From Armatimonadota bacterium (lineage in GTDB: Bacteria; Armatimonadota; UBA5829), in the NCBI GenBank assembly GCA_050948905.1, contig JBMNES010000001.1, positions 896,129 to 960,128 on the forward strand: a DNA stretch of 64,000 nucleotides, given 5' to 3'. Position numbers and translations under genes: made by a program. Positions 29,443 to 54,628 of the stretch are shown here, in pieces; positions within the stretch are counted from its first letter, which is position 1; each line of letters opens with the position of its first letter. The notes below the pieces were generated by a model. The model was not told the DNA's origin. It saw nothing but the letters and a program-made list of their open reading frames with translations, and did not search any database.

Positions 29443-29480
29443 TCGGTAGATAAACCGGCCACAGTCGACTGAGGAACTAT

Positions 29481-29948: not shown

Positions 29949-29996
29949 AGACTATAAATCGTCGATTTCAATTTACAGATAATCGCGGGAAATTAT

Positions 29997-30944: not shown

Positions 30945-30980
30945 AAATCGTAGTCTCGCACCGATACCGAAAGGTCTGGC

Positions 30981-32021: not shown

Positions 32022-32057
32022 AGTCGCCCAACAGATCAAAACAGGTAGAGAGATAGA

Positions 32058-35854: not shown

Positions 35855-36153
35855 TATACTGCGTGTGAAATTACAGGTGTTTATGCTGAATCCGAACCAA
35901 TAAACACGACCTCGGCTGCGGCATTCTTAAGTATCTATAATTCAGACGCCCGCATTCTGTTATTATCTCATCATATATATGACTACCTATGTGCACTTAA
36001 ACCTAAAAAGCGCAAACGCCTATGTCATCCCCCGCAATCAATGAAGACAAAGAATATAGTTTTCTGGCGATGAGGAAGGATGTACACTAGGCGATAGCGT
36101 AGAAGAATGTAAGCTTGGCACGTCAAGTCCAATTAATGAAGAGAGAGGGCAAT

Positions 36154-38373
36154 ATGAACAGAATCACTTTGAGTCTTATGACTGGACTGCTGCTAGCTAC
36201 ATTAGTCCTGACAGGATGTGGCGGCGGCGGTGGTGGCGCAAATGGAATTGCAGGAGGATCAGGCGTCGAAATCACGGTGCTACCTGATACATACTACACT
36301 GGTACCTCCAGCACACCGCTTGGAATATCCAAAGCATCTGGCAGCAACTCTGAGCACCAGATTGTAGCCAAACTGGATACAGGCGCGAAAATTGAGGCTT
36401 TCGACTTCGAAACTGGGGACAAGCTCGGTGAAACAAATGTTGGAAACGATGGCAAGGGTATATTGAGGCTACCCTCCGGCAAAACGGTTTTAATAATTGT
36501 GACTGGCAAGAGAAACGGCAAGCCTTATCGTTTGTCGACGATAATTCCTTCGGTTAACAAGTCTGGAGAATGTTACGTAGGTCCAGCGGAAACATTAGCT
36601 GCGGAAGCGATCGCACAAAAGCATTACAGGCAAACCCCTATAGATGATTCCACCTGGGAGAGTGTGCTCGAGGCCGCTCAGGATTTGTTGGAGCAGGTGG
36701 AGACCCCTGATATTTCTATCGGCGGCGGATTGATTACTGACGCGGCATTCGGCACTCCAGGAAGCATTGATCAGGCCGGCGAAAGCATCATCAATGAGGT
36801 TCCCGACGAAATCGATTCTTCATTGATAAAAGCAAAAAATATTGTGCGCAGGATCAATGAGACTGCCACGCCTCTACAGGATATTCTCCACCAGGAGTAT
36901 CTGGGAATCAATGACATAGCGTTTGCAACGTACCAAGGTATTGAGGCTGCGGGCTTAGGCGATACCTTCAACAAATACCAACTGCTTGGCGACAGGCTTA
37001 GCCAGATGATGATCCCGTTGCTGGACGAAGGTTTTTACTTCAACGGCGATTATGACGTGACCCTGGACGAGCTTGAGGTAGGTAAGAAGTATAAGCTTGC
37101 TGAGGGAGAATGGTCGTATGAGGTCACGGAGATCCCAGGTGGCGTTGCTGGCAAAGTTACAGTCATCAAAGAAAACGGCCCCAACGAAGTATTGACCGTA
37201 GTCGCGAGAGAAGTTGGAAAACTTTGGGAGGTTAAGCAGACATCTTCGTCTGATTCGAATTTGAACTACACGATCACTATGTCTTTAGATAATGACGGTG
37301 ATCCGGAAAACTTTACAATATCCCTGAAAGACAAGGATATTACCACTGCTGTTACTTTTAACGGCTCAATCAATACCGTTAAGAACGGCTCGGCTGTAAC
37401 TACTACTTTTGCTGGAAGTCTTACCTCCAAGGAAGTCAATGTTACACAGGCAAAGGCCACTATTTATCAAGATAAACATAAAGTCAACAGGGTTGTAATA
37501 CAGAATCTTCAGGCAAGCTACCAGGCAGGCTCACTTAAAGCGACCATACGCGGGCAGATGGCAGCAGATATTGAGTCGAAGGAAGCTGCTTCCGGCTCGT
37601 ATACTTGGGAGGAATATCGCCCCACTTCTATTGATGTCAGCGAACTGAAAATTGAGGTCACCGCAGATGGTAAAACATCCAGCTTCAATCTCTCAGGAAA
37701 AATTGACGTCGTTAACTTCCAACGAGGGAACGAATGGTATACCTCTGTTATAAGTAGCCCGACGAACATAGAAGCGCTGTCGTTCTCGGCGTCACTTGAC
37801 AACGATAGTGTCAAAGTAGAGGGCACACTGGAAGCCTCTGCTGAGTTGAGGACAGTCGGCAGTGTGCAGAGAGTATTCCCGACTCGGTTCGTGCTGTCTA
37901 ATTGCAAATATATACGTAAAGGCAAAACGAGCCTAAACGGCACATTCACTGGCGAGTGGGAAAACCCCGGTTACGATAAGAGTTCAGGGTATCCGGAAGG
38001 CACAATCGATGTGGACGCGACATTAAAGCGAGCCGGTTATGACGATCTCGCCGTCAAGTTGAAGCTTGACGCTGATGGCTCCGGAGGTGTTGTTCTCACA
38101 GTGACTAAGCTGGGATGGTCAGATATCTACTTCGCGGGATCTGGTGCGGCTACGTGGTCTGCTGGCACCAGCGCGATCAACACAGCAACGCTCACTCTTG
38201 AGAGCAACAATGGAGTGACTATAGACTTCACAGATAAGAATATGAACGGCTCTGTCAAAGTCGGTGGTGTGGAGAAAGGCACCATCAGCAAAGACGAGTT
38301 TGGTGCCAAAGTAGATTTCCCGAACGGAACTACGACAGACACTATATACTTGATAGGGAATCCTGCTCCTTAG
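36154..38373 (+). CDS. Large beta-rich putative lipoprotein
   Basis: Lipobox LTG|C followed by polyGly; about 740 aa; AT-richer than its neighbours. Confidence 0.75.
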   Translation: MNRITLSLMTGLLLATLVLTGCGGGGGGANGIAGGSGVEITVLPDTYYTGTSSTPLGISKASGSNSEHQIVAKLDTGAKIEAFDFETGDKLGETNVGNDGKGILRLPSGKTVLIIVTGKRNGKPYRLSTIIPSVNKSGECYVGPAETLAAEAIAQKHYRQTPIDDSTWESVLEAAQDLLEQVETPDISIGGGLITDAAFGTPGSIDQAGESIINEVPDEIDSSLIKAKNIVRRINETATPLQDILHQEYLGINDIAFATYQGIEAAGLGDTFNKYQLLGDRLSQMMIPLLDEGFYFNGDYDVTLDELEVGKKYKLAEGEWSYEVTEIPGGVAGKVTVIKENGPNEVLTVVAREVGKLWEVKQTSSSDSNLNYTITMSLDNDGDPENFTISLKDKDITTAVTFNGSINTVKNGSAVTTTFAGSLTSKEVNVTQAKATIYQDKHKVNRVVIQNLQASYQAGSLKATIRGQMAADIESKEAASGSYTWEEYRPTSIDVSELKIEVTADGKTSSFNLSGKIDVVNFQRGNEWYTSVISSPTNIEALSFSASLDNDSVKVEGTLEASAELRTVGSVQRVFPTRFVLSNCKYIRKGKTSLNGTFTGEWENPGYDKSSGYPEGTIDVDATLKRAGYDDLAVKLKLDADGSGGVVLTVTKLGWSDIYFAGSGAATWSAGTSAINTATLTLESNNGVTIDFTDKNMNGSVKVGGVEKGTISKDEFGAKVDFPNGTTTDTIYLIGNPAP

Positions 38374-38396
38374 ACCAGGTATCTATCTTACTGCGC

Positions 38397-39581
38397 ATGG
38401 AACCTTCAGTGAATCTGGAGGTTCCATCTATTATCGGAAGCGATTTGAATATTGTGATTTATCGCGTAATCTGGACTTCTCTCATTTTTGCGTTTTTGGT
38501 TAATCATTGCCAGGCTGAGAAAATCCCTCTGCCTCCCACTTTTATCACACAAGACATTATCGCGGCAAGCGCAATTTCACATAATCCCTCGCGCTTCGAA
38601 ATAGATGCTGGGGGGTGCGTTGGAGGCTTCAACAACATTCGGTCTATATGGTCGTTGGCTTCAAAGGATCAATCACCCATAAGAGTTGATTCTGACAGGC
38701 CATATGCTCGGCTGAGATTCGGCCAGTGGGCGAGATTATCCAACAAGAATTGGTTTGTGGCGATAGGATCGGGATTCAGAGACGAGTACGATGGTAACCA
38801 GGACGCAGCCCAGCTATATGTCGACCTCCGCACGAGATTGCGCAGCCAGGACGATTATGCTCCGATAGCCAGTGACCTGCACGTGGCGGCAAGTTGGTAT
38901 GGTGTCGGCAAACAAATTGATTTTAAGATGGGGGCTATCGACACAAGCACCCAGGTAATGGCTCGCTATTTGCGAATGACGGATTTGCTGGCTCGGGATC
39001 TGGAGGGGTCGCTTACCACGGAGGAATTCTCGGGAAACATACGTATTCTCTCGTCTGATTACTCTGATCGAGTTTTCGGATCTGGATGGGCGCTGGATTT
39101 CAGATCAACTTTTAAGGCAAATAATACCTGGGAAGGATTGGTTGCTGTTGAAGGTCTGTTGGGCTGTGCCAAATGGGAAAACCTCGCGGATCGGAATTTG
39201 TACTTGCGGTCGGCTTATGTTTTTACAGATCCCGATGGATTCTACCGAGACGCGGGCGGATTATCCGGCACCACACAAAAACGAAATTTGACGCTTGATA
39301 TCAATCGCCATTGTCGATTTGAGCTAATGCGTAAATCAAAAACAGTGTATTTGTTGGGTGGTATGTCGTGGCAAGAGGGCTATGATTCGGTGCCGGACTT
39401 CGGGGTAGCGGTAAAGAAGTATAAGTCGATAACACCATACACCCGCGTTTATCCCACCGAAAACCGAGTCGAGCTTGGAGCCACGGGGCGAGGCTGGCAT
39501 TTGGCGTTCTCAGGCGACAGTTGGCTGTTTGCATCGCCAAAAAATGCTACGGTAGACTTGTCTGCGGCGCTGGTATGGTAG
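38397..39581 (+). CDS. Putative outer-membrane beta-barrel protein
   Basis: Signal-like N-terminus, alternating amphipathic strands, C-terminal Trp; start codon uncertain. Confidence 0.5.
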   Translation: MEPSVNLEVPSIIGSDLNIVIYRVIWTSLIFAFLVNHCQAEKIPLPPTFITQDIIAASAISHNPSRFEIDAGGCVGGFNNIRSIWSLASKDQSPIRVDSDRPYARLRFGQWARLSNKNWFVAIGSGFRDEYDGNQDAAQLYVDLRTRLRSQDDYAPIASDLHVAASWYGVGKQIDFKMGAIDTSTQVMARYLRMTDLLARDLEGSLTTEEFSGNIRILSSDYSDRVFGSGWALDFRSTFKANNTWEGLVAVEGLLGCAKWENLADRNLYLRSAYVFTDPDGFYRDAGGLSGTTQKRNLTLDINRHCRFELMRKSKTVYLLGGMSWQEGYDSVPDFGVAVKKYKSITPYTRVYPTENRVELGATGRGWHLAFSGDSWLFASPKNATVDLSAALVW

Positions 39582-41751: not shown

Positions 41752-41970
41752 GAGAAAACGCGAAAACCCGAAAGAGGCGAAAGTCAGAAAATAATGGAAA
41801 GCGCTGCGTTGATGGATCGAACTTCCAACATCTGACCTCGGACATCGAAAAAAGCAGATTTCTCACTGCGTTCGAAATGACAGGGAGGGTGTCCGAAATG
41901 ACAGGGAGGGTGTTCGAAATGACGGGGAGGAAGTTCGAAATGACAGGGAGCGTGTTTGAAATGACAGGGA
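41752..41970 (+). repeat. Composite element: CGAAA 9-mers, heptamers, hairpin repeat and 21-nt array
   Basis: AAATGAC ends at 41881, 41902, 41923, 41944 and 41965. Confidence 0.9.
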
Positions 41971-42029: not shown

Positions 42030-42707
42030 CTATTCGTGCTTGCACCAGCCCTTTATGGCTGCTTTTATTATGTTCACCGCATCTTCATTTGTAAAGTTGT
42101 CCATCCATAAAGTGAGGTCGAATTGTGCAGCATCGGCTCGTTCTCTGCCGAATAGGCTGATGAGGAACTGCCTTCTGCTGCGGTCGGAGTTGCGGAGTTT
42201 TTCGCGAGCTTGCTCTGCCGTCAGGCCCTCGAACTGTATCATGTTCTGAATCCGCAGATCGTCGGATTCATCGATTCTTATTTTTAATGCATCGGGAAGA
42301 ATCAGGTTCGCACCTCTTCCCAGTATGATGGCGTTTCCGAGGCGGGCGATCGATTTCACCGCTCGGGCCAGGTGCCTGGCATATATGAACCCGGCCATCT
42401 GCTCATCGCCGAACAGTCCCCGCGCGAAAAGTTCGATTTCCGAGACGGTATGCTCATCGAACGCCTGCACAACCTTCTGTGACACTCTCGCATGCTGCGC
42501 CATTGAGTTGACCAGTTCCTTGTCCCACAGGCTCCAGCCCAGGTCCTCGGCGAGTTTCTCGGCGATAATGCGCGCCCCACTACCCATTCTCCGGGAAATC
42601 GTCACTACAGAGTGTGTGCAAACCTCCTCAATGCTCTGCTGCCTCTCCCTGGCAAGCTGCGACCTACGCACCTGCTCGTTGACAATCTGCTCAATGTGTC
42701 TTGCCAT
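42030..42707 (-). CDS. Cytidylate kinase-like family protein
   Basis: VTISRRMGSGA, IILGRGAN and FDL motifs. Confidence 0.8.
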   Translation of the reverse strand: MARHIEQIVNEQVRRSQLARERQQSIEEVCTHSVVTISRRMGSGARIIAEKLAEDLGWSLWDKELVNSMAQHARVSQKVVQAFDEHTVSEIELFARGLFGDEQMAGFIYARHLARAVKSIARLGNAIILGRGANLILPDALKIRIDESDDLRIQNMIQFEGLTAEQAREKLRNSDRSRRQFLISLFGRERADAAQFDLTLWMDNFTNEDAVNIIKAAIKGWCKHE

Positions 42708-42846: not shown

Positions 42847-44184
42847 TCAAGCAGCTTTTTTGAGGCCTGGCGCATCCTCCATCAGCTCATCAACGCTCAC
42901 CCCCATATCGCAGCAGGCCATCTGTATTAGGTCCTGATAATGGGCAGCATCTGTCGGGTATTTTGCTATGCCTATCCGAGCCGTGGCGCCGATTTTTACG
43001 GTTTTTCTGCCGGATTCTATCTCTATACCGCTTACAATATCACGCATCCGGTCTGCAACAACCTGCGCCTGCGCGTGAGTATGAGGCAAAATCAGCGCAA
43101 AGCTGGTCTGTCCAAATCGAGCCACTATATCCATCCTGCGAACCGAGGACCGTATAGTCTGTGCAGCAGCATACAGCACGTCATCGAGCCTGAGCATTCG
43201 CAGATACTTCTCCGTGTCCTCAGGCAGACATATATCCACCAGCACCAACGCGAGCTTACATCGCGATCTGTAGGCTCGGTTGACCTCTTCATCGAGCCTT
43301 TGCTCTAAATAATAGCGATTGTAAAGGCCAGTGGTGTTGTCTATTACGCTAATTTCGTCTTTCGGCTGAGTGACCGGGCGCGCCGAGACCAGGGTTCGTT
43401 GAATCTGTGCGTCGCGGATTTCCTCCGTGGCAAGTATCTTTTTTAACTTTTTGGTGCCATTACGGAGTATATGGGAGACATAATTGCAGCTTATCCCCAT
43501 CTTCTTTGCGATCTCGGTCTGATTGTGGCCTTTATAGTAGTGCTCTGCTATCACTTTCTGCTCGATATCCTTCAGGCGCTCCATAGCTGTTTCGAGCACT
43601 ATTTTATCTTCCAGAGGCAGTTGGAACGTGACCACCTTATCGTCTGCGATCTTCTCGGAGTCTCGCAAATTAGGCGCTTCATCGTTGTCGCCGTCCAGCG
43701 AACCCACCTTGAAAACCTCACGAGTGGTCAACAGATCCGCAACCGTGCATTCCGGCATCTCCATCACCTCACCGATTTCCTTTTCGGTGGGCTGCCGGTT
43801 TAGTTTATGGCTGAGAGATTCTATCACACGGGTCATTTTCTGGTTAAGCTCCTGCAGCCAGGCCGGTTCCTTTATGATTTTGCCCTTATCGCGCAGGTAG
43901 TGCTTGATCTGACCGATGATAAAATGCGTGGCATAAGTCGAGAACTTCACACCCTTTGACGCATCGAACTTGTCGACCGATGAGATCAGGCCGATGTAGC
44001 CTTCCTGGCACAGATCCTCAAGCGGTTCCAGCGCACCCACAAACCGGCGGGCTATGCTCTCGACCAGGTTGGTGTACTGCATGACGATCTCATCCCGAAC
44101 CTCAGGATCCGGATTCTCGGCGTAAGCCGCCAGCCTCTGTTGGATTTCTTCTTCAGTTAGCTTTTTTACGCTTCCTACAAGCAT
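42847..44184 (-). CDS. SigB/SigF-type sigma-70 factor fused to a degenerate GGDEF domain
   Basis: Region 2 EDLCQEGYIGL...KFSTYA...IKHYLRDK; region 3 RQPTEKEI; region 4 QTEIAKKMGIS; then DNTTGLYNR and RRMDIVARFGQTSF. Confidence 0.88.
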   Translation of the reverse strand: MLVGSVKKLTEEEIQQRLAAYAENPDPEVRDEIVMQYTNLVESIARRFVGALEPLEDLCQEGYIGLISSVDKFDASKGVKFSTYATHFIIGQIKHYLRDKGKIIKEPAWLQELNQKMTRVIESLSHKLNRQPTEKEIGEVMEMPECTVADLLTTREVFKVGSLDGDNDEAPNLRDSEKIADDKVVTFQLPLEDKIVLETAMERLKDIEQKVIAEHYYKGHNQTEIAKKMGISCNYVSHILRNGTKKLKKILATEEIRDAQIQRTLVSARPVTQPKDEISVIDNTTGLYNRYYLEQRLDEEVNRAYRSRCKLALVLVDICLPEDTEKYLRMLRLDDVLYAAAQTIRSSVRRMDIVARFGQTSFALILPHTHAQAQVVADRMRDIVSGIEIESGRKTVKIGATARIGIAKYPTDAAHYQDLIQMACCDMGVSVDELMEDAPGLKKAA

Positions 44185-44259
44185 GTGTTTCCTCTCCGCA
44201 TGCCGGTTAAATCGTGAACATGCCGGTAATATATTCGTTGCCTTCCCTGGCTGACGACG

Positions 44260-45471
44260 TTAGTTTATGTTGCTGATAAGTTTGAATATAGGCGCCATGA
44301 TGGACACAGCGATAAACCCGACGATGCCTCCCATGGTGACTATGAGACAAGGCTCAATAAGAGAGGTGAGCGTCTTCACTGCGGTTTCCACCTCAGAATC
44401 ATAAAAGTCCGACACCTTGGCCAACATATCCGATAACCGGCCGGTTTCCTCGCCGATGTCGATCATATGTGTGACCATCCCCGGGAACAGATTGCTCTGA
44501 GCCAGCGGAGTGCTGATTTTTTGGCCTTCTCGAATGGCAGAGCGCGCATTTTCAATAGTCTGCGAGATTACCCTGTTGCCCGAAGTCTCCCCTACGATCT
44601 CCAATGATCTCATCATAGGCACACCGCTTGCGATCAACGTCGCAAACGTGCGGGCAAACCGCGAGATCGCCATTTTCTGGACCAGCTCCCCTACTACTGG
44701 CAGCTTCAATTTCAGCAAGTCTATCTGCCGGCCGCCCGTCTCGGTCTTGCTGTACCATCTATAAAAGAAATATCCACCCAGTGCCGCGCCGAGGCCGATA
44801 TACCAGTAGTGCTGAGCAAAGTCGCTTATTCCGAACAGAAATTTCGTCGCGCCCGGCATCTCGACGTTCATAGAGTCGAATATCTCTTTGAACTTGGGCA
44901 ACACAAACAACAGCAATGCGACGACCATCAGTAACGCGAATACAAGCACCAGGATCGGATAGATCATCGCACCTTTGATCTTGGCACGAATCTCCTGTTC
45001 GTCCTCCAGAAACGTCGCCAGCCTGTCGAGAATCTTGTCGAGAATACCGCCCGTCTCCGCAGCCCGGACCATGTTCACATATAGTCTCGAAAAGACATTC
45101 GGGTGCTTGCTGAATGCATCCGTCAGGCTCAAGCCCCCTTTGACATCCTTCTTGCACGCGGCTATGACGGGTTTCAGAGCAACATCCTTGGTCTGGCCTT
45201 CGAGAATATCCAGACACCTCACAATGGCGACCCCAGCATCTATCATTGTGGCAAATTGGCGGCTGAACACGACCATAGAAGCCAGCTTTACTTTTTTACT
45301 GCTGGTGCCTTTTGTGGCGGCTTTAGCACGTGTTTTATCCTCGGTTATATTTAAGACGTGATATTGCTGGTCGTGCAGTTTGGCCAGGACCAACTGCTCA
45401 TTTTCTGCCTCTATTCTTCCCCGGACAGATTTGCCCGACGGATCGACTGCCGTATATACGAAGTTGGACAT
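44260..45471 (-). CDS. pilC: Type IV pilus platform protein PilC (T2SS F family)
   Basis: FSRQFATMIDAG, AAETGG, IYP, IGEETG and LIEP motifs. Confidence 0.93.
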   Translation of the reverse strand: MSNFVYTAVDPSGKSVRGRIEAENEQLVLAKLHDQQYHVLNITEDKTRAKAATKGTSSKKVKLASMVVFSRQFATMIDAGVAIVRCLDILEGQTKDVALKPVIAACKKDVKGGLSLTDAFSKHPNVFSRLYVNMVRAAETGGILDKILDRLATFLEDEQEIRAKIKGAMIYPILVLVFALLMVVALLLFVLPKFKEIFDSMNVEMPGATKFLFGISDFAQHYWYIGLGAALGGYFFYRWYSKTETGGRQIDLLKLKLPVVGELVQKMAISRFARTFATLIASGVPMMRSLEIVGETSGNRVISQTIENARSAIREGQKISTPLAQSNLFPGMVTHMIDIGEETGRLSDMLAKVSDFYDSEVETAVKTLTSLIEPCLIVTMGGIVGFIAVSIMAPIFKLISNIN

Positions 45472-45477
45472 AGCCTG

Positions 45478-46605
45478 TTAGCCTCCCTGGAGGAATCGCT
45501 TGTAGTTTTCCCGGTCGATAGCTCGTGACATAGCTTCTTCATTGGTAATTCTGCCGAATCTATATAGGTCTGCGAGCACTTTGTCCATTGTTTGCATGCC
45601 AAATTGTGCGCCAGTCTCCAGTGCGCTGTAGATCTGGTAGGTTTTGCCCTCTCGTATCAGGTTCCTTATGGCCGAAGTGGCTACCATGATCTCGATCGCC
45701 GCAACTCGTCCTCCGCCTGTCTGAGGGCAGAGCTGTTGTGCTATTACAGCCTCGAGGCTGTTTGATAGCTGCACCTTTATCTGATCCTGCTGATGGGGCG
45801 GAAAGACGTCGATGACGCGGTCGATGGTCTGCGGCGCGTTGCGAGTGTGCAGGGTGCCGAAGACGAGGTGACCGGTCTCAGCGAGGGTGAGAGCGGCGGC
45901 GATGGTCTCCAGGTCGCGCATCTCCCCTATGAGTATCACATCCGGATCCTCTCGCAACACAGCGCGAAGGGCATTTTCAAACGAGTCCGTATCGGTGTTC
46001 AGTTCCCGCTGGTTGATCATCGCCCGTTTGTGCCGGTGCAGATACTCGATGGGGTCCTCTATGGTCATTATATGGATCGGCTGCTCAGCGTTGATAGCAT
46101 CAATCATGCACGCGATTGTGGTCGATTTGCCGCTACCCGTCGGCCCTGTCACCAATATCAGCCCGCTGTGTTTGCGGGTCAATTCACGAAGCACCGGAGG
46201 CAGGCCGAGTTGTTCGAAGCTCGGGATCTGGTCGGGGATAGCCCGTAGAGCCGCCCCTACGCTGCCGCGCTGCCGGTAGACATTTACTCTAAACCGGCCG
46301 ACTGCGCTGACCCCATAAGAAAAGTCCAGTTCGCGGGTTTTCTCGAACCACTGAACCTGATCGGTGCTCAGGATATCATATATGAGCCGCTGGCTGTCAT
46401 TGGGCAGCAGCGGAGCGTAGTTCAGGTGCTGCAGGGAGCCGTCGACGCGCACCACCGGCGGTAATCCTACAGTCAAGTGAAGGTCCGACGAGCCTTTCTC
46501 GCACGCGTCGCGAAGCAGATCGTCGAGATGTATCTCGCTGACCGATTTTACCTCATCGTTAGTAGTGTAACCCTCACTCAGTCCCTCAAGGGGAATGCCT
46601 TGCAT
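45478..46605 (-). CDS. pilT: Type IV pilus retraction ATPase PilT
   Basis: GPTGSGKST, TIEDPIE, LREDPD and AIRNLIRE motifs. Confidence 0.95.
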   Translation of the reverse strand: MQGIPLEGLSEGYTTNDEVKSVSEIHLDDLLRDACEKGSSDLHLTVGLPPVVRVDGSLQHLNYAPLLPNDSQRLIYDILSTDQVQWFEKTRELDFSYGVSAVGRFRVNVYRQRGSVGAALRAIPDQIPSFEQLGLPPVLRELTRKHSGLILVTGPTGSGKSTTIACMIDAINAEQPIHIMTIEDPIEYLHRHKRAMINQRELNTDTDSFENALRAVLREDPDVILIGEMRDLETIAAALTLAETGHLVFGTLHTRNAPQTIDRVIDVFPPHQQDQIKVQLSNSLEAVIAQQLCPQTGGGRVAAIEIMVATSAIRNLIREGKTYQIYSALETGAQFGMQTMDKVLADLYRFGRITNEEAMSRAIDRENYKRFLQGG

Positions 46606-46654
46606 TATAAAATCCTCCGTCTGTGATCGCTCTTTGTCAGATCACAGGATTGCG

Positions 46655-46774
46655 AAAAAGCAGATTTCTCACTTCGTTCGAAATGACAAGGTTGGCGTTC
46701 GAAAGGACAAAGGTTGGTAACGTCGAAACAACTCCAGCGTCGTTCGAAATTGCAACGATGGTCATTCGAAATGA
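46655..46774 (+). repeat. Hairpin repeat with a degenerate 21-24-nt array between pilB and pilT
   Basis: AAAAGCAGATTTCTCACTTCGTTCGAAATGAC; CGAAA at 46679, 46700, 46724, 46745 and 46767. Confidence 0.85.
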
Positions 46775-46791: not shown

Positions 46792-48519
46792 TTAGCCTGC
46801 ATAGATTACCCTCAGACACTCCTCGAGAGTAGTCTGGCCCAGCAGTATTTTGGCCACGGCGTCGTCTTTTAAAGTCTTCATCCCGGCATCTATCGCGGCT
46901 TCGCGCAGGACGTGCGCTGAGCACTTCTGCAGCACCAGGTCTCGCAGCTGATCGTTTACCACCATCAGCTCATAGACCCCCAGTCGGCCTTTATATCCGC
47001 TGCCGCGACACAAATCACAGCCGCGTCCACGATAGAAAGTCACCTTGGCGTCGCTTTCCAGCTCTATGCCAAGCCTGCGAACGGCGTCGCGCGGCGGAGT
47101 ATACTGCTCCTTACACTTCGGGCATACCACACGCACCAGTCTCTGCGCCAGCACACCGATGACGCTGGATGCGATAAGAAACGGCTCAATACCCATCTCC
47201 ACCAGCCTGGTCATAGCCCCAGGCGCGTCGTTGGTGTGCAGAGTCGAAAGGACGAGGTGGCCGGTCAGAGCCGCCTCAGTGGCGATAATCGCGGTCTCCG
47301 CATCACGAATCTCACCGACCATCGCGATGTCAGGGTCCTGTCGCAGCATCGTACGCAGTCCGGCAGGGAAAGTCAGGCCCGCGCGGTTGTTTATCTGAAC
47401 CTGAGTAAGGCCTTCGAGTTCATATTCCACCGGGTCCTCGATTGTCAGAATGTTTTTCTCGCCAGAGTTCAGCTTTGAAAGCACTGAATAGAGCGTAGTC
47501 GATTTCCCGCTACCGGTCGGCCCCGTCACCAGGATGATGCCGTAGGTGCGGGAGATCAGCCCCTCGAATTTCTCCATCGTCTCCGGCAGCATCCCCAGCT
47601 TGTGCAGACCCACGGATACCGAGCCCTTGTCGAGAATCCTTAAAACGATTTTTTCTCCAAAGACCGATGGCAGAGTGGAGACGCGGAAGTCATACTGCCT
47701 GCCGTCTATAACCGCCCCGATTCTGCCGTCCTGAGGCGAGCGCTTGGTGGCGATGTCCATTTCCGACATGATCTTGAACCGCGAAATTAGCGAAGCCTGC
47801 ACCTTTTTTGGCACTCTCATTACCTCAGTGAGGATGCCGTCGACTCTCAGCCTAACCCTCACGAAGTCCTTGGCAGGCTCTATATGAATATCGCTGCCAC
47901 CGTCGCTGATGCCTCGGGAAATGATCAGATTCGCCAGTTTGATGACCGGCGCTTCCTCGCTAAGCTCTCGAAGCTGCTCGATGGAGATATCTTCATCGTC
48001 CTCTTCCGAGCTCGGACCGAAGTCGATGTCGCCGGTGTCGAACTCTTTGATGACGCTGTCGACCTGCTCGGAGACGTTGATCTGGGCTCTGTAAAGCCGG
48101 GCTATGGCCGTGATGATATCTTCTTCGGATGCTATGCACGGTTCCACATCCGTACCGGTCATCAGCCGCACTTCATCAATCGCGAAGATGTCCAGTGGGT
48201 TTTTCATTGCAAGAGAGAGTTTGCCGTTTCTTCTAGCCACCGGCAGAATCTTCAACTTGCGGGCCACGCTCTCCGGAATCAGCTTTATAGCCGCAGGGTC
48301 GATTTCCAGTTCCTGCACATCGACAAACGGTACCCCCCATTGCTCACCAAGCCCTCGGATGCGATCCTTTTCGGAGATGAAACCCATACTCACGAGCACA
48401 TCCCCCAACGCTTCCTGGCGCTTCAGAAGTTTTTGCTTCTCCAGCGCCTGGTTGAGTTGGTCTCTCGTGACCATCCCCATCCTTATAAATACTTCTCCGA
48501 TTGGCTCAGTTCTTTGCAT
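46792..48519 (-). CDS. pilB: Type IV pilus assembly ATPase PilB with N-terminal MshEN-like domain
   Basis: SDIHIEP, GPTGSGKST, LRQDPD, CPKC...GCDLC motifs; two N-terminal G..L...G motifs; ATG 48519 preferred as start. Confidence 0.93.
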   Translation of the reverse strand: MQRTEPIGEVFIRMGMVTRDQLNQALEKQKLLKRQEALGDVLVSMGFISEKDRIRGLGEQWGVPFVDVQELEIDPAAIKLIPESVARKLKILPVARRNGKLSLAMKNPLDIFAIDEVRLMTGTDVEPCIASEEDIITAIARLYRAQINVSEQVDSVIKEFDTGDIDFGPSSEEDDEDISIEQLRELSEEAPVIKLANLIISRGISDGGSDIHIEPAKDFVRVRLRVDGILTEVMRVPKKVQASLISRFKIMSEMDIATKRSPQDGRIGAVIDGRQYDFRVSTLPSVFGEKIVLRILDKGSVSVGLHKLGMLPETMEKFEGLISRTYGIILVTGPTGSGKSTTLYSVLSKLNSGEKNILTIEDPVEYELEGLTQVQINNRAGLTFPAGLRTMLRQDPDIAMVGEIRDAETAIIATEAALTGHLVLSTLHTNDAPGAMTRLVEMGIEPFLIASSVIGVLAQRLVRVVCPKCKEQYTPPRDAVRRLGIELESDAKVTFYRGRGCDLCRGSGYKGRLGVYELMVVNDQLRDLVLQKCSAHVLREAAIDAGMKTLKDDAVAKILLGQTTLEECLRVIYAG

Positions 48520-48522
48520 AAT

Positions 48523-48630
48523 TGGTTGCCGGTTGTCGGTTATCGGTTTTTTTCTGCTGCCCCGCCGCATTGGCTGACGGGGCAGCACCAGGCGTTAGCG
48601 ATAGATAATCGCTCGCCCTGGGGACTACGT
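48523..48630 (-). repeat. Heptamer tract and GTAG-tagged hairpins between pilQ and pilB
   Basis: Minus strand AAAACCG-ATAACCG-ACAACCG-GCAACCA just before the pilB ATG; GTAGTCCCCAGGGCGAGCG...CGCTAACGCCTGG hairpin. Confidence 0.6.
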
Positions 48631-48651: not shown

Positions 48652-51351
48652 TCAGTCTTGCACAATCGACGCTGTGATAAAGACCACAACCTCAGAGCGC
48701 TCCTTGGTCTTGTTTCTATGCCTGAAGAGATGACCGAACAGCGGTATATCCCCTAAAACAGGGATTTTACTCAGAGAATCGAGTTCGCTGTCGAGAATTA
48801 GTCCGCCAATTACTATCGTCTCCCCGTTTTTCACACGCAGAACGTGGTCGGTGAAGCGACGGGTTATAACAGGCAGCGTAATTCCCGCCTCCGAGCGCAT
48901 ACTGGTGTCGAGCTTCAGGGTGCTGACCTCCGGGTGCAAATTGAGGGTTATGTCGCCATCATCGGTGACGGCTCCCACCACAGATAACTGCACCCCGACA
49001 TTGGCGGTGTCTGTGGTAACTGTCGGCGCGCCGTTGGTAGCGACGCTGATCTGCGTGATGTATCTGATCTCGTCACCGACAAAGAACTGCCCCGGTTTGC
49101 CCTCAAGACAAATCAGGCTGGGCGACGCAAGCAAAGTCCCATCCCCACTGGCAATCAGTGCATCAAGCTTCGCTCCAAAATCAACTGGTTCCCGATGCCA
49201 GCGATTGCGTGAGACCTCTACCTTGCTAAACTCACCCCAATTCCAGCTCACTCCAAGGTTCTTCTCACCCGTCTCGGAGAGAGCGGTAAATTTGGCCTCT
49301 ATCTTGATCTGAGGGGATTTTACGTCAAGCATCTCGATTATCGACAGGGCCTTCTTAACGTCGTACTTGCGGCCCTGAAGGACCAGCAGCCTGGAAAGAC
49401 TATCCACGGCCTGGGCGTTCATCGCGCCCTGCTGCTTGACGTTGGTCTGATCCTTACCAGCTTCACGAAGGTCGTCGTCCGATTTGCCTCCGGCTCCACC
49501 GCCGGCAGGGCTTGAGCCGCCGCTGCCGGAATCCTCCGACGGATCAAGACCGGCGCTCTCCAGCACGACCCCAGGGGTTAGTTTTCTCAACGCGGCGACA
49601 ACGTTCTTTAGACCTACATATTTGAGCTTATATGTCGCCAGCTCAAAGTCTCCCGGCACATCGAACTGGGCCGCTGTGTCGAGCGCTTTTTGCACATCGT
49701 CCGCTTTGCCCACGATAATTAAGGTGTGGCTGAAGTTACCGGACTGCGTATCGAACTGCCTCACGGTATTCTCACCGCTGATCGCGCTTGCCGGGATCAG
49801 TTTATGCTTGGAGTTATCCGAACTCGGCATTCCAGCGAGCGCATCCGACGGCGCAAGAAGTACGTTTACGCCCATCACAACCGACATCAGAGTGTTGGCC
49901 AGCTCAACGGTGTTTACGTGCTTCACCGGATACAGGCTGATCTTCTTATCCTCCGACTGGTTTTTCATAGTCTCTTCGACCTGAGCTATGAACTCCTTGG
50001 CAGCATCTATGCGATCCTGTGTGCCGGAGAGGATGATCAGGTTGCTGGAAGGCGAATCGGTGGCAGATGTGCTGCTCAATATCTCCTCGGTGCTGACCGC
50101 ACCCCCTGTGTTGACGTTGGCGGTGGCGCCTGTCGCAGGCTGAATGTTAGCCTGTTCACCGAAATCCGCCTGTCCATCGGCGGCTTCGATGTTACCGCTT
50201 GACGGTGCCCCTTTGCTTTCGGATTCGCCCTTTATATTGGCATCAGATTTTACCGCAGATTTCGTGGCTATTTCGTGCTTGCGCGCTTTGCCACCCAGGA
50301 CGCTGATCTTGCTTGATCGAACATGCGGACAGCGCACTTTGAGCATGCCCAGCACATCGTCGGCGTTGGCGTAGGTTAAGGTCACTATCTCGACCTGAGA
50401 ATCTGCAAATCCACCTATCGAATTGAGGGAGCCTACGAGATATGTTTGCTGTGTCTTTACATAGGTAAAACCGCTGAGCTGGGTTATGTAGTCTAACGCC
50501 TGCTCGACGGTGACGTCCTTTAATGTGACAGTAATCTTGCCTGCCACATCGCTGCCGACGACGATATTCTCCTTGCTTTGTACGGAAATCGCCTTCAACA
50601 CGTCCTCAATGTCAGCGCCCAAAAAGTTCAGCGAGACGGTTCTGCCCGCGCCCATTGACGCAGGCACCGAGGCCGGTTTAGCGACAGGAGCCGCCGGCTG
50701 ATGATTGACAAACGCAACCTGTTGAGCAACAGGCGCTGCTGCATTAACCGCGACCGCCGGTCGCATTGCGGCTTCAATTGCCTGGATGCTCTCCACCGCC
50801 ACCGGAATAGCCATTGGCGGCTCTTTAGCCAGGACAGCTTTAGAGGGCACAGAACTGACCTCGACCGCAGGCGCGGCCGGTATATTCGGGGCGGCCGTCT
50901 CCGCCTTTGGCGTGGCGCCGAACTTCCAAACGGATATCTCTACGCGCGTCCTGTCGTCGTTCCACGATGTGGAGTAGTCCAGATTGCTGGCCGTATTGAA
51001 TACGATACGTGCCGCCGGCGGTTTTTCCTGGAATCTCGAATAGCGGACGTTATGGATTTTTCCGCTCTGAATCGAGACCATTCGGCCTTCGACGTTGAGC
51101 TGTCCGGCGAATTGAAATGCTATGAATCGGCCCGAACTCGATGAGATTACTCCCATCTTGAGCGGTGCGTCGCCCTGCACCGATACGATTGCACGATCGG
51201 GCTTGTTGGCAACGTTGACCCCGGTGATATTGACTGCGGCTGCCTGGCTGACGATCAGCAGAGCCAACATCGTGATGATGATCCCCTGCAGGGAGATCAA
51301 GGCGCCGATTCGCCGGGTTTTAGACTTTGCGGCGAACGCGTTAGCTTGCAT
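48652..51351 (-). CDS. pilQ: Secretin (PilQ/GspD family) with N-terminal AMIN-like domain
   Basis: VSLNFLGADIEDVL, QIKIEA, GETIVIGGL and KIPVLGDIPLFGHLF motifs. Confidence 0.9.
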   Translation of the reverse strand: MQANAFAAKSKTRRIGALISLQGIIITMLALLIVSQAAAVNITGVNVANKPDRAIVSVQGDAPLKMGVISSSSGRFIAFQFAGQLNVEGRMVSIQSGKIHNVRYSRFQEKPPAARIVFNTASNLDYSTSWNDDRTRVEISVWKFGATPKAETAAPNIPAAPAVEVSSVPSKAVLAKEPPMAIPVAVESIQAIEAAMRPAVAVNAAAPVAQQVAFVNHQPAAPVAKPASVPASMGAGRTVSLNFLGADIEDVLKAISVQSKENIVVGSDVAGKITVTLKDVTVEQALDYITQLSGFTYVKTQQTYLVGSLNSIGGFADSQVEIVTLTYANADDVLGMLKVRCPHVRSSKISVLGGKARKHEIATKSAVKSDANIKGESESKGAPSSGNIEAADGQADFGEQANIQPATGATANVNTGGAVSTEEILSSTSATDSPSSNLIILSGTQDRIDAAKEFIAQVEETMKNQSEDKKISLYPVKHVNTVELANTLMSVVMGVNVLLAPSDALAGMPSSDNSKHKLIPASAISGENTVRQFDTQSGNFSHTLIIVGKADDVQKALDTAAQFDVPGDFELATYKLKYVGLKNVVAALRKLTPGVVLESAGLDPSEDSGSGGSSPAGGGAGGKSDDDLREAGKDQTNVKQQGAMNAQAVDSLSRLLVLQGRKYDVKKALSIIEMLDVKSPQIKIEAKFTALSETGEKNLGVSWNWGEFSKVEVSRNRWHREPVDFGAKLDALIASGDGTLLASPSLICLEGKPGQFFVGDEIRYITQISVATNGAPTVTTDTANVGVQLSVVGAVTDDGDITLNLHPEVSTLKLDTSMRSEAGITLPVITRRFTDHVLRVKNGETIVIGGLILDSELDSLSKIPVLGDIPLFGHLFRHRNKTKERSEVVVFITASIVQD

Positions 51352-51970
51352 TTGGAACTCCTCCTAATTTAACGTGGATCCGACGATTCTCACAGGCCAA
51401 AACGACGCCATCCGTCGAGACGGAAAGCACTTTGTAGCGCCCGCCGATGAACTGGCCCTGCTTTACAATATGCCTTTGCGAACCAACTTTAATAATCGCG
51501 ACATTCTCAGTTCCGCAGATCACTCCCGTCAGTGTAATCTGCGGTTCCGGCTCAATTGCGGGTACCGCAGCAACCTCGGATACGGGTGCGCTTTGGAAAC
51601 TGCCCATAGGTATCAGCGGAGGTACCTTGCCTGTGCTCACCTGCACGACCTTCGCAGTCGGGCTGCTGACAGGCAGCTCGGGCACCTTATCCGTGACTTT
51701 AGGCTCAACTGTGCTTGCCAATTTCTGCACGGCAAACGGGTCTCTGCGCGGAATCGGAGAGTTCAAATCCGGATACGTAGCCGTGGTCGGCAGCGGCTGC
51801 GAGCGCAGTTGCATCGCTGCCGCATTGGTGTTTGGTTTGGTCACTTTGGGCACAGGTGGCGTCATCTCAGTGGCCGGGGGTTTGGTCACGGTAAATGACA
51901 CGTATCCTATGCACACAAGGACCAGCAAGCCAAGCACGATTAATTGTGGGGTTTGTTTTTTATCCTTCAT
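51341..51970 (-). CDS. PilP-like pilus assembly protein
   Basis: TM anchor, RRDPF, LTGVI...AII...VKQGQ motifs; lies between pilO and pilQ. Confidence 0.65.
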   Translation of the reverse strand: MKDKKQTPQLIVLGLLVLVCIGYVSFTVTKPPATEMTPPVPKVTKPNTNAAAMQLRSQPLPTTATYPDLNSPIPRRDPFAVQKLASTVEPKVTDKVPELPVSSPTAKVVQVSTGKVPPLIPMGSFQSAPVSEVAAVPAIEPEPQITLTGVICGTENVAIIKVGSQRHIVKQGQFIGGRYKVLSVSTDGVVLACENRRIHVKLGGVPNAS

Positions 51971-52670
51971 TTTTTCTCTCCATCGGAACCCCCGCGCAGT
52001 CGTCAGCCGGCTTTTGCTTGCTGTTTGAAGTCTCTTTAAACACAAAAGCTGTCGCGTTGATTTTTATGCTGAGTTTCGTGCTGCCAGCGTCACCCGACCC
52101 GGATTGCGGGGTCATTTCGAGGGAATTGACCGCCAGGATCTTCGGAAAACTGGTGAGCTTATAAAGAAAATCCAGGGCGTTCATATAATGGCCCTCAAGC
52201 TCCAGGTCAACTCCGAGCTCATCGTAAGGCTTCGGCGGCTCAGGTCTCTCAGCTGCTGCCGCTCCCCCAGAGCTATCTGCAGCAGCCGCGGCGGCCTGCT
52301 TTTTGGCGAGCGCGACATTAGGGTCCGGAGGCAGCGGCCGCACGCCCAAAACTTTCAAATCAACAGACCTGCCCAGGTTCTCGATCTGTTTAAGCAGCGT
52401 CGGCACATAGGCCTGGGTAGAAACCGATGACTCCAGGCAACGTATCTGGGCTCGCGTGTCCAGATATTTATTTTCGGTGCTGATCTGGGTCTGCGCGATC
52501 ATCTGGCTGTCTCTGAGCTGCGTCTCGACCTGGCGTTTCTCGGTATCCACCGATCGCACCTTGCCAATAGCGGCCAGGCAGGACAACACGCATAATACAA
52601 AGACCAGCCCAGCCATAATGCCCAGTACAGCTACACCCTTCTGGCTCGGTTTAAGACTGATTTGCGCCAC
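51960..52670 (-). CDS. pilO: Type IV pilus assembly protein PilO
   Basis: TM plus coiled coil; VPTLLKQI and EGHY...DFL..L..FP motifs; synteny. Confidence 0.75.
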   Translation of the reverse strand: MAQISLKPSQKGVAVLGIMAGLVFVLCVLSCLAAIGKVRSVDTEKRQVETQLRDSQMIAQTQISTENKYLDTRAQIRCLESSVSTQAYVPTLLKQIENLGRSVDLKVLGVRPLPPDPNVALAKKQAAAAAADSSGGAAAAERPEPPKPYDELGVDLELEGHYMNALDFLYKLTSFPKILAVNSLEMTPQSGSGDAGSTKLSIKINATAFVFKETSNSKQKPADDCAGVPMERKNEG

Positions 52671-53256
52671 TTGCCGTCCCCCCTTTCGCATCCTCCTGCT
52701 GTTTGTCTCGCAGGGTCGCGCCGATCTCGAACTCTACCACTTGAGCCGAACCCTGTGTGCCTTTTTGCGTGTAGTGCAGATCGACGCTCTTAAAATCAGG
52801 GTTGGAGTGCAACCGCAGCATGGTCTCACCGACTCGAGCCTGCTCGTCGGTCATTCCGGCGATGTTAAGGGTAAGGTCTTTGCTGCCGGCGGCGGTTGAA
52901 GATGACAGACGCGTCAGCCAGGTGGAGGCGGGCACGCTCTGCGTAAGCCTATCGAGCGTGTTATACCAGCACATGGTTCGCGTCATTGCCTGGTTCAACA
53001 GATCGACTTTGGGCTTCAGTTTTGCGGTCTTGTTATCAAGTTCCTGAATAGTCTTGATCTTCGGCGCCAGCGTCTGCAGTTGAGCATTAAGCTCAGCGAT
53101 GTTGGCGCGTGTGGTAAGGGTCTTTGTAAAAACCCACCCGCACAGAGCCACCACAAAGACGAACTCCGCCAAAATCAACATTACTAACTGCCGCATCGCA
53201 CGCTCCAGCCGTCGTTTCTCCGCGCGCCGAGGTGCGATCATATTAATCGAAGGCAT
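52651..53256 (-). CDS. pilN: Type IV pilus assembly protein PilN
   Basis: SINMI (INLLP-like), TM, coiled coil, VP..TWLT motif. Confidence 0.8.
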   Translation of the reverse strand: MPSINMIAPRRAEKRRLERAMRQLVMLILAEFVFVVALCGWVFTKTLTTRANIAELNAQLQTLAPKIKTIQELDNKTAKLKPKVDLLNQAMTRTMCWYNTLDRLTQSVPASTWLTRLSSSTAAGSKDLTLNIAGMTDEQARVGETMLRLHSNPDFKSVDLHYTQKGTQGSAQVVEFEIGATLRDKQQEDAKGGTASGANQS

Positions 53257-53284
53257 CAGCGATACTCCTTTCGTCTCGGCGCCA

Positions 53285-54409
53285 CTACGCAACCGCCTTT
53301 GACGTGGTCTCCGGGATTAGCTCCTTAAGCGCCAGCCCCGTGCTTACGGCGAGCACTGGACCGTGTTCGTCGATAAATTGTTGGGCCACCGATCCAGTCT
53401 TGATGGCGGTCTGATCGAATACACTGGCCACCTGAGCAGGAATATCCAGCCTGCCGGATATATACGAACTCAGGCCGGGCATTCGGGCTGTGCCTCCGGT
53501 CAGCACGATCTTGCTGACCTGTGCGTCGACGCTGCCTTCTGGGAACTGGGATTGGTAGAAGTGAATAGATCGCCGAATCTCCCGGATAAGCTCGTCGAGC
53601 AGCGGCTGAACCACTCGCCAGCATTTGTTTTCCGTGTCGGCGGCGTTGAGTCTGTCGATGGGAAGCTGGGCGGTCATATCCCGTTTTGCCTGCTCGGCAT
53701 CTTCGAAACTACCCCCCAGAAGAGATCGAATTGAATTGGTAAAGCTGTCCCCAGCGATGGGGATGTTTCTGGTCAGGGCAAACTCGCCCTTGCTTACGAT
53801 GTCAACATCTGTGTGGCTCGCCCCAACGTCGATCAAGGCTATAGTGCTGTTGAGGTATTCGTCCGTGGCGTTGAACTCAACAAGCGCCCGGATCACCGCG
53901 AAAGACTCGATGTCGATAACCAACGGCTCCAGACCCGCCGATTCGAGCACAGCCACCCGGCTGTCGATCATATCCTTCGGCGCCGCCACAAGCATGACGT
54001 TCATCTGAGCAGGATCCTCGGCTTCTCCGAGAATCTGGAACTCGACGATGCTGTCTTCCATTGAGGACGAGATGAACTTGCCGGCTTCGTATTTTATCGA
54101 CTTGCGCAGCAAGGCTTCTGCCATCTTGGGGAACTGAACCTGCCGGACTATTACCTGCGAGCCGGATATGGCGCATACGGCTCCGGTGGGTTTCATCCCG
54201 GCGTCGCGAAGCATGTTGCGAATCTCCTGGCTGACATCGACGATGTTGATTATGCAGCCATCTTTGATTGCTTCTTTGGGAGTCGGTGCCACCGCGGCAT
54301 TCACGAGCGTCCAGCCGTGGGGAGTCGGCTCAATTTCGACAGCTTTGATCCAACTGCTGCCGATGTCTATGCCGACCGTGACCTCTTTGCTGAAAAATGA
54401 GCTGAGCAC
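53285..54409 (-). CDS. pilM: Type IV pilus assembly protein PilM
   Basis: VGIDIGS, IDVGAS, EIRRSI.FY and LTGGTA actin-like motifs; GTG start after AGGAGG. Confidence 0.92.
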   Translation of the reverse strand: MLSSFFSKEVTVGIDIGSSWIKAVEIEPTPHGWTLVNAAVAPTPKEAIKDGCIINIVDVSQEIRNMLRDAGMKPTGAVCAISGSQVIVRQVQFPKMAEALLRKSIKYEAGKFISSSMEDSIVEFQILGEAEDPAQMNVMLVAAPKDMIDSRVAVLESAGLEPLVIDIESFAVIRALVEFNATDEYLNSTIALIDVGASHTDVDIVSKGEFALTRNIPIAGDSFTNSIRSLLGGSFEDAEQAKRDMTAQLPIDRLNAADTENKCWRVVQPLLDELIREIRRSIHFYQSQFPEGSVDAQVSKIVLTGGTARMPGLSSYISGRLDIPAQVASVFDQTAIKTGSVAQQFIDEHGPVLAVSTGLALKELIPETTSKAVA

Positions 54410-54628
54410 GTGCCTGTAACCTCCTCGCATTGGCCAGCGAATGAAGACGATTAAACTCGTCTACATAAGAGATTATCGTCATTTGGCGGCTCAACTGTAG
54501 TTCTGTTTCGTGGTTTCGCAAGATAACAGTAATGATTGCTGGGAATATGGAATAACAGCGCAAGCAGGCAGGCGGGACATCATGAAGGTTGGCGGCGCGG
54601 TTTGGGAGAATACAGATGTAACCATCTA

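Follow-up and report, generated by a model that had tools for sequence, protein, structure and literature searches.

Background

Known links between cyclic di-GMP (c-di-GMP) and transcription are dedicated transcription factors and riboswitches, to which Streptomyces adds a separate anti-sigma factor. The gene considered here may represent a shorter route: a single open reading frame (ORF) of 445 amino acids (aa) in which an alternative sigma factor is fused to a degenerate GGDEF domain, located directly downstream of the pilC gene of a type IV pilus cluster in an Armatimonadota bacterium (GTDB lineage UBA5829; assembly GCA_050948905.1, contig JBMNES010000001.1). The stretch of DNA that was analysed (64,000 nucleotides, positions 896,129 to 960,128 of the contig) is referred to as the window, and coordinates are window positions unless prefixed with C1. 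A preliminary description made from the sequence alone had proposed that this fusion is a sigma factor gated directly by c-di-GMP.

Several described systems share parts of this arrangement. PopA of Caulobacter and PelD of Pseudomonas likewise combine a GGDEF fold bearing a dead catalytic motif with an intact RxxD inhibitory site (I-site) at canonical spacing (RxxDxxxRxG...), and PopA also feeds a ClpXP proteolysis pathway (PMC12564702, PMC10333796). However, PopA contains REC-REC domains and serves another protein as its adaptor, and PelD is a membrane GAF protein controlling a polysaccharide synthase, whereas the output of the fusion is a sigma factor in the same polypeptide. Control by c-di-GMP over the availability of a group 3 alternative sigma factor is found in the RsiG-sigma WhiG pair of Streptomyces (PMC13232838), while regulation in cis by a domain placed after region 4, without a separate anti-sigma factor, is found in ECF41, ECF42, OrbS and others (PMC3426412, PMC8999054, PMC9023288). 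These extracytoplasmic function (ECF) sigma factors belong to group 4, lack region 3 and carry SnoaL-like, tetratricopeptide repeat or Cys-rich extensions, in contrast to the fusion, which has region 3 and a presumed nucleotide-messenger receptor domain; the fusion may work like the ECF sigma factors with a fused domain but is not one of them. In the RsiG-WhiG system the messenger is reportedly held by the separate anti-sigma protein, whereas the presumed receptor of the fusion, the GGDEF domain, lies in cis. Cyanobacterial SigF, a group 3 sigma factor that published work treats together with pilA1 and pili, differs from the fusion in having no fused sensor domain; it is said to control a pilin gene. 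Finally, the fusion shares with ssrA-like degrons a disordered tail ending in Ala-Ala-COOH (the tag of the organism's own transfer-messenger RNA, tmRNA, ends LAA), although the residues preceding Ala-Ala are LKK in the fusion and YAL in the tag.

No description of the sigma-GGDEF fusion architecture was found in open-access PMC papers or bioRxiv (subscription journals and supplementary tables lie outside this scope), which agrees, for those collections, with the earlier statement that no example was known. The arrangement is new, and its parts are known: a receptor of the degenerate-GGDEF type, an on-board regulatory domain attached to a sigma factor, and an Ala-Ala degron.

The fusion gene and its domain architecture

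It appears reasonably probable that the gene encodes a working group 3, SigB/F-like sigma factor with a cis-acting c-di-GMP receptor, and that this protein is an ancient, pilC-linked partner of the type IV pilus. The features of the gene are as follows.

42847..44184, minus strand: sigma-GGDEF fusion gene, 445 aa (ORF; Pfam and NCBIfam domains; both folds by AlphaFold2, AF2, and Foldseek)
43879..44085, minus strand: sigma region 2, residues 34-102 (Pfam PF04542, Sigma70_r2, E 8e-20)
43723..43851, minus strand: sigma region 3, residues 112-154 (Pfam PF04539, Sigma70_r3, E 2e-7)
43438..43587, minus strand: sigma region 4 helix-turn-helix, residues 200-249 (Pfam PF04545, Sigma70_r4, E 6e-13)
43348..43437, minus strand: extension of the region 4 helix (to about residue 266) and short disordered linker, residues 250-279 (AF2, alignment)
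42916..43347, minus strand: degenerate GGDEF domain, residues 280-423 (Pfam PF00990, E 2.4e-23)
43129..43140, minus strand: RxxD I-site motif, R349-R-M-D352 (aligned with RKSD of 6zxm; family conservation)
43099..43113, minus strand: GQTSF at residues 358-362, a dead counterpart of the catalytic motif GG(D/E)EF (sequence, PDB alignment)
42850..42870, minus strand: disordered C-terminal tail, residues 439-445 (...PGLKKAA), with Ala-Ala end (AF2 pLDDT <50)

The uninterrupted frame begins with ATG, with a Shine-Dalgarno sequence (GGAGAGG) 7 nt upstream, encodes sigma regions 2, 3 and 4 followed by the GGDEF domain, and ends with TGA. The matches to PF04542, PF04539 and PF04545 are all above the Pfam cut-offs, and the GGDEF match reaches 83.1 bits against a cut-off of 23.8. 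The single sigma-plus-GGDEF frame of the preliminary description, which had proposed the Pfam scan as a check, is therefore borne out by the ORF, by these strong domain matches and by Foldseek, where the sigma half matched S. aureus SigB and sigma-S holoenzyme structures and the GGDEF half matched the c-di-GMP-bound structure 3ign (target-normalised TM 0.79, root-mean-square deviation 2.9 A). Amongst the NCBIfam models, the SigB/F/G model TIGR02980 scores highest on the N-terminal half, at 172.1 bits and under its cut-off of 234.35, followed by the SigF subfamily model NF005644 (166.6 bits) and, lower, FliA/WhiG (104 bits). Because the TIGR02980 score falls below the cut-off, the protein is SigB/F-like but not a curated TIGR02980 member.

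The sigma half is better conserved than the GGDEF half, with its invariant residues concentrated in region 2 (D57, G65, T83, H95, R98 and D99 in an alignment of 93 sequences). An alignment of 27 sequences, whose members are 53-83% identical to the query, adds the invariant region 4 stretch ISCNYVSH and, in the helix following region 4, the invariant residues L251, T253, E255 and D258. The AF2 model, built from the 93-sequence alignment, has a mean pLDDT of 81, with the GGDEF blocks mostly at 88-97, and is confident within each domain. It contains a helix spanning residues 233-266 and disordered segments at 158-189, 266-276 (pLDDT <50) and the last seven residues (439-445, pLDDT <50). A pTM of 0.45 gives no usable geometry between the sigma and GGDEF halves, and the model has no defined contact between them. 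A complex prediction combining the sigma half (1-262), the GGDEF half (277-445) and two c-di-GMP molecules scored 0.00 and was weighed neither way on an intramolecular lock.

A dead GGDEF domain with a conserved I-site

The GGDEF domain of the fusion is matched by cyclases in the PDB, to E 3e-14. In the alignment with the solved cyclase 6zxm, RRMD-IVARF-GQTSF of the fusion falls on RKSD-IISRF-GGEEF (the sister entry 6zxb reads AKSA), which confirms both that GQTSF replaces the catalytic motif and that RRMD lies five residues ahead of it, the canonical I-site spacing. The same alignment corrects the earlier claim that the FK..ND..GH substrate-binding segment is missing: the segment is present at almost equal length but substituted (DICLPEDTEKYLRMLRLDD versus IDIDKFKNINDTYGHEIGD in 6zxm). 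The last helix of the domain has diverged as well, since the Pfam match ends at profile position 147 of 161. By its motifs, the fusion protein is not a cyclase, and its GGDEF fold is predicted to be without the ability to make c-di-GMP.

The former catalytic motif varies freely in the 27 aligned sequences (GQTSF, GETSF, SETCF, ENERF, QDRVF, DDQIF and DKTTL, with SDTCF a further variant in the family), while R349, D352, R356 and R379 are invariant. Across the 93 sequences, which extend down to 29% identity, R349 and D352 are the sole invariant columns of the GGDEF half, and R356 and R379 are conserved in at least 90%. Motifs were also tallied in proteins with both halves aligned, namely 118 of the 120 close hits and 68 of the 149 distant representatives, the others being dropped:

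GG[DE]EF: close set 0/118, distant representatives 0/68
RxxD: close set 118/118, distant representatives 59/68
R379: close set 118/118, distant representatives 62/68

Over the 186 fusion proteins, GG[DE]EF thus occurs in none, RxxD in 177 and R379 in 180; the conservation of RxxD, named in the preliminary description as a check, extends to the whole close family. The counterpart of R379 is the Arg of AERIR in 6d9m and of DRVR in 6zxm, and the I-site of the fusion probably consists of R349 and D352, perhaps completed by R379. Retention of the I-site together with loss of the GGDEF motif is the criterion given for c-di-GMP receptors of the PopA and PelD kind (PMC10333796, PMC12564702).

Distribution of the fusion in the Armatimonadota

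The 120 homologues listed at 90% clustering are all about 445 aa long, are 55-93% identical to the query and share the same set of sigma and GGDEF Pfam domains, which excludes a chance joining of the two halves. The named close homologues come from metagenome-assembled genomes (MAGs) of Armatimonadota and are annotated merely as "sigma-70 family" or "sigma-B" factors. A HMMER search over 1.84 billion representatives returned 205 matches at E <= 1e-30, dozens of which span both halves in a single stretch, down to about 31% identity. Within a sample of 301 Armatimonadota genomes, the fusion was matched in 222 (E <= 1e-40), including 175/238 high-quality genomes and 122/159 genera, and the listed matches cover both halves without internal stops. 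A fusion unique to this assembly or split in its relatives, which had been considered as grounds for rejecting the proposal, is not what the phylum displays. The homologue set, these intact matches and the difference-free contigs from RNA libraries described below together rule out an assembly artefact or a frameshift fusion.

When species-representative genomes were scanned for the pattern, 583 of 597 candidate stretches were confirmed. The labels of the best 80 of these stretches place 70 in an Armatimonadota lineage (Chthonomonadales, Fimbriimonadales, Armatimonadales, Capsulimonadaceae or Ca. Zipacnadia) and say just "bacterium" for 10; MAGs labelled Chthonomonas, Fimbriimonas and Capsulimonas bear the fusion. 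Ten of the distant representatives were looked up for taxonomy, and the one with a label belongs to the Armatimonadota. The ESM Atlas has a concordant distribution, with one cluster auto-named "GGDEF/Sigma-70...", so the combination is on display in databases, yet uncharacterised. The fusion is ancient within the phylum.

Linkage to the type IV pilus locus

The fusion gene is the last member of a co-oriented 12-kb cluster comprising pilM, pilN, pilO, an ORF without a family, a secretin gene, pilB, pilT and pilC. The cluster and its surroundings are as follows.

42030..42707, minus strand: cytidylate-kinase-like (CK2) gene, downstream of the fusion (Pfam PF13189)
44185..44259, minus strand: 75-bp spacer between pilC and the sigma gene, with Shine-Dalgarno sequence and two copies of the direct repeat CCGGCATG (genus comparison)
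44260..45471, minus strand: pilC (T2SSF platform protein), directly upstream of the fusion (Pfam PF00482, E 7e-66)
45478..46605, minus strand: pilT-type retraction ATPase (Pfam T2SSE, E 1e-46)
46792..48588, minus strand: pilB-type assembly ATPase with MshEN (Pfam T2SSE, E 2e-134; MshEN, E 1.6e-24)
48652-51351, minus strand: secretin (Pfam)
51341-52045, minus strand: ORF without a family (Pfam scan)
51960-52691, minus strand: pilO (Pfam)
52651-53292, minus strand: pilN (Pfam)
53285-54430, minus strand: pilM (Pfam), closing the secretin-to-pilM block 48652..54430

The co-orientation with pilC and the gap of 75 bp are as originally described, and the scan found no terminator-like site on the minus strand between the two genes. 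The synteny check suggested at the outset shows that the linkage is conserved in several orders. In the phylum scan, 26 of the best 30 loci, that of the window counted among them, have pilC directly upstream and co-oriented, the other four being one locus cut by a contig end and three from other classes. Among 80 named loci, pilC is adjacent in 43, among them loci of Fimbriimonadales, Armatimonadales, Capsulimonadaceae and Zipacnadia, at sigma identities down to about 38%, and 8 more have too little upstream flank to judge. The length of the spacer ranges from -4 to 389 bp across loci, often with a hairpin inside, so that conservation extends to the linkage and not to the structure of the transcript. 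One RNA-library contig spans the fusion stop codon into the CK2 gene, and none spans pilC to the sigma gene. The search for riboswitches and other known RNAs in the window found only a tRNA.

The downstream cytidylate-kinase-like gene was considered as a partner and rejected: it follows the fusion in just 4 of the 30 loci and is linked within the genus only, and it is therefore probably not part of the system. The two CCGGCATG copies, about 20 bp apart and just upstream of the Shine-Dalgarno sequence of the sigma gene, are kept in four genomes of the genus (loci L005-L007) and not beyond; this repeat could be an operator or a leader-RNA element. In the same cluster, the N-terminal ~80 residues of PilB (46792-48588, minus strand) contain, beside the Pfam MshEN domain, two tandem stretches, IGEVFIRMGMVTRDQLNQALEKQ and ALGDVLVSMGFISEKDRIRGLGEQ, which resemble the published MshE c-di-GMP motif RLGxx(L/V/I)(L/V/I)xxG(L/V/I)(L/V/I)xxxxLxxxLxxQ but are without its leading Arg, and PilB may be a second c-di-GMP receptor of the cluster. 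A second pilus-like cluster elsewhere in the genome (C1:466230-478530) has at least four prepilin-type genes (C1:469510-470872). Two proteins encoded nearby, one of HD-GYP type (466230-467900) and one PilM-like (477364-478530), both end in Ala-Ala.

Partner genes and promoter search

No RsbW/SpoIIAB-type anti-sigma or STAS gene stands beside the fusion, as all HATPase_c_2 and STAS matches lie outside the window. The genome's sole sigma factor to pass TIGR02980 adjoins RsbW-like and STAS genes (C1:293.8-295.4 kb). Consensus promoter scans returned matches at the level of shuffled sequence. GGTAAT was considered as a promoter element and dropped, being present in 4 of 21 upstream stretches of prepilin genes without a common -35 partner.

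Cyclic di-GMP enzymes and their co-occurrence with the fusion

The genome (3.05 Mb, a single contig, 97.5% complete) encodes four other GGDEF proteins with an intact GG(D/E)EF motif (CBS-GGDEF; GGDEF plus HD-GYP; HD-GYP-GAF-GGDEF; GAF-GGDEF), seven HD_5 (HD-GYP-type) frames and one PilZ protein, while no EAL domain was found in it. By this gene content, the organism appears both to make and to break c-di-GMP.

Across the phylum, 25/301 genomes are without a PF00990 match at E <= 1e-30, a threshold that leaves out the fusion's own weak GGDEF domain. Of 20 listed genomes without a cyclase, 18 have no fusion match, and the remaining two (G108 and G222) have marginal matches only (1e-41 to 1e-43); with the GGDEF half alone as query, nothing was found in these two or in G047, G073 and G153. 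Since the genomes without a cyclase are related to one another, the co-occurrence is a consistent pattern that carries no statistical weight. The converse fails, as several families have cyclases but no fusion (e.g., f20, with a cyclase in 5/5 genomes and the fusion in 0/5).

The Ala-Ala end

In the 27-sequence alignment, A444 and A445 are invariant while the preceding ~20 residues are variable, and 115 of 118 close homologues have the Ala-Ala (AA) end. The organism's tmRNA tag is ANNNYALAA, and a ClpX was found (619 bits, above cut-off). In the genome as a whole, an AA end is rare (27/1835 non-overlapping ORFs of at least 200 aa), but four of the five GGDEF proteins end in AA (hypergeometric P = 1.8e-7), and these four are the sole ORFs of the genome that end in KAA; the AA-ended c-di-GMP enzymes include C1:1223524-1224918, 1227625-1229460 and 2473442-2474737. 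Across 12 further genomes of the class, an AA end is present in 22 of the 27 best GGDEF proteins (loci L114-L143; three motif-less opposite-strand frames were dropped). The tag belongs to the end of the protein and not to the fold, as it is also present where the GGDEF domain is followed by about 215 or about 280 residues.

The family scan covered 20 of the other 23 AA-ended ORFs in the genome. The scanned ORFs include two more HD-GYP-type proteins, an HDOD protein, CheB, PilM, MotA, FlhA and sigma-54, as well as a sigma-70-family protein beside flhA that is "FliA-like" from its context only. Altogether, four of the seven HD_5 frames are AA-ended and the PilZ protein is not.

In the ssrA tag, recognition by ClpXP is described as depending mainly on the terminal Ala-Ala-COOH, and native proteins with an Ala-Ala end are described as ClpXP substrates (PMC7652416). 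An upstream positive charge or Leu is said to help ClpXP recognition (PMC10862746), and the tail of the fusion reads LKKAA. The fusion protein is probably subject to ClpXP turnover, and the invariant Ala-Ala suggests that regulated proteolysis has a part in its mechanism. The sharing of this ending by c-di-GMP enzymes and motility proteins further suggests a coordinated proteolytic resetting of the whole network, of which no description was found in the literature searched.

Proposed mechanism and weight of the evidence

In the mechanism proposed for the fusion, c-di-GMP made by the cyclases and removed by the HD-GYP proteins would bind the I-site and alter the availability of the sigma factor to RNA polymerase. 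By one route, the ligand would cross-link or immobilise the GGDEF domain; because this domain hangs from the helix extension of region 4, such dimerisation or immobilisation, of the kind that the I-site brings about in cyclases, could disturb the docking of region 4 to polymerase or DNA. By a second route, alternative or additional to the first, binding would hide or expose the Ala-Ala tail, following the logic of PopA and ClpXP. High c-di-GMP would switch off or destabilise the sigma factor, tying the transcription of pilus and surface-behaviour genes to the level of the messenger. The preference for this direction is weak and comes from analogy with product inhibition and with RsiG-WhiG.

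A bolder version, held only tentatively and as a joint claim, is that the fusion is the first case of a sigma factor being a c-di-GMP receptor in its own right and that it works within a lineage-wide, Ala-Ala-tagged ClpXP network of cyclases, HD-GYP phosphodiesterases, motility proteins and alternative sigma factors, with I-site binding setting the exposure of the tail and the lifetime of the sigma factor, and by way of that lifetime the transcription of pilus and surface-behaviour genes.

None of the refuting conditions of the preliminary description that computation could address spoke against the proposal. A number of observations weigh against the reading of the fusion as a pilus-linked sigma factor with its own c-di-GMP receptor. 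The c-di-GMP binding, sigma activity, regulon, sign of regulation and proteolysis of the fusion protein are predictions, as are ligand binding, sigma activity and degradation in any member of the family, and with a pTM of 0.45 the AF2 model provides no structural route from the I-site to sigma function. The position of R379 is presumably that of PleD R390, the third I-site arginine, going by the alignment with AERIR. As a control, RxxD was also found in 24 of the 30 best canonical PF00990 loci of the class; its presence in the fusion is partly a matter of ancestry, since the motif is common in the active cyclases of the class. Additionally, RxxD is absent from 9 of the 68 distant representatives, and therefore not every fusion protein can use an I-site mechanism. 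The Ala-Ala end is present in just 16 of these 68, and Ala-Ala is described as necessary for ClpXP recognition but, in E. coli, not enough on its own (PMC10862746). The pilC linkage is absent from 29 of the 80 named loci, 24 of them in Chthonomonadales. No shared promoter motif was seen by eye upstream of the 21 prepilin-type genes. There is weak evidence of expression in that the fusion gene is covered, without differences, by contigs of two RNA libraries from a single study, but these contigs may reflect DNA carry-over and give no more than a hint of transcription. The telling point on the side of a receptor is that RxxD persists in a domain that, by its motifs, has no catalysis left to inhibit.

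Alternative explanations

The alternative that survives best, although it is unlikely, is that the dead GGDEF domain serves independently of any ligand in dimerisation, scaffolding or localisation (e.g., docking the sigma factor to the pilus platform or to a different protein), with RxxD kept for its part in structure or in protein contacts. Some degenerate GGDEF domains, such as CsrD, are described as having lost nucleotide binding (PMC10333796), the tight linkage to pilC would suit docking at the pilus machine, and the AF2 model has no defined contact between the halves. However, the invariance sits exactly on two I-site residues while the domain drifts to 29% identity, and no fusion was found in genomes without a cyclase, the two marginal matches aside.

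GGDEF domains work as dimers. The degenerate domain might accordingly pair with the GGDEF domain of a specific active cyclase, so that the sigma factor would be a partner in local signalling, or a trigger, and not a reader of the global pool. The four active-looking GGDEF proteins of the genome and the co-occurrence of the fusion with cyclases across the phylum would suit such a pairing, and E. coli is reported to have local signalling among its GGDEF/EAL proteins (PMC5635695). This possibility is nonetheless doubtful, as it leaves unexplained why the I-site and not the dimer interface is invariant, and no cyclase is linked in the loci examined, although the tblastn queries there were the pilC, pilT and CK2 genes only.

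GTP binding at the former active site occurs in some degenerate GGDEF domains, and there are GGDEF enzymes whose products are other dinucleotides. Binding of another nucleotide (GTP, cyclic GMP-AMP or ppGpp) by the fusion is nevertheless quite improbable, given that no positions in the family vary more than those of the former active site, that the FK..ND..GH substrate-binding segment is substituted, and that the conserved residues are those of the I-site. Least plausible is a protein that is no longer a sigma factor, being a region 4 DNA-binding regulator or a decoy titrating core polymerase or an anti-sigma factor, for although the 172 bits against the curated SigB/F/G cut-off of 234 and the missing promoter motif would fit such a role, all three sigma regions pass the Pfam cut-offs, the sigma half is the better conserved, with its invariant residues concentrated in region 2, and the fold matches holoenzyme-bound SigB and sigma-S.

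Other features of the window

A dispersed family of 21-bp tandem repeats (consensus GTTCGAAATGACAGGGAGGGT) has copies in the window at 41870-41970 and 46675-46717. The 14-base core of GTTCGAAATGACAGGGAGGGT occurs 71 times at 38 loci of the genome, against 0.05 expected, and in four sequencing runs word depths reach 12 to 758 in the window bin containing the second copy (46569-46700), versus 0 to 9 in the neighbouring bins. The runs that contain the stretch are labelled as sludge and biogas-fermenter metagenomes. Genes related to heterodisulfide reductase and hydrogenase (CCG domain, FlpD, FrhB-like and several 4Fe-4S proteins) occupy 23687-32909 on the plus strand, a cluster that fits an anaerobic lifestyle. 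A GIY-YIG nuclease domain and a HicB-like antitoxin domain are encoded at 24535-25190, also on the plus strand, by a pair of small ORFs that overlap. No Pfam family was matched at E <= 1e-5 by either of the two large ORFs (752 and 394 aa) at 36115-39581, plus strand, and the 752-aa ORF has a lipoprotein-like N-terminus (LTGCGGGGGG).

Significance

If the fusion is a sigma factor with its own c-di-GMP receptor, no route by which the messenger influences promoter choice could be shorter, and the principle of a sigma factor with an on-board sensor would extend from the ECF sigma factors to group 3. As the family is large (583 stretches), ancient and locked to pilC, the fusion probably has a central part in the surface behaviour of a phylum for which genetics hardly exists.

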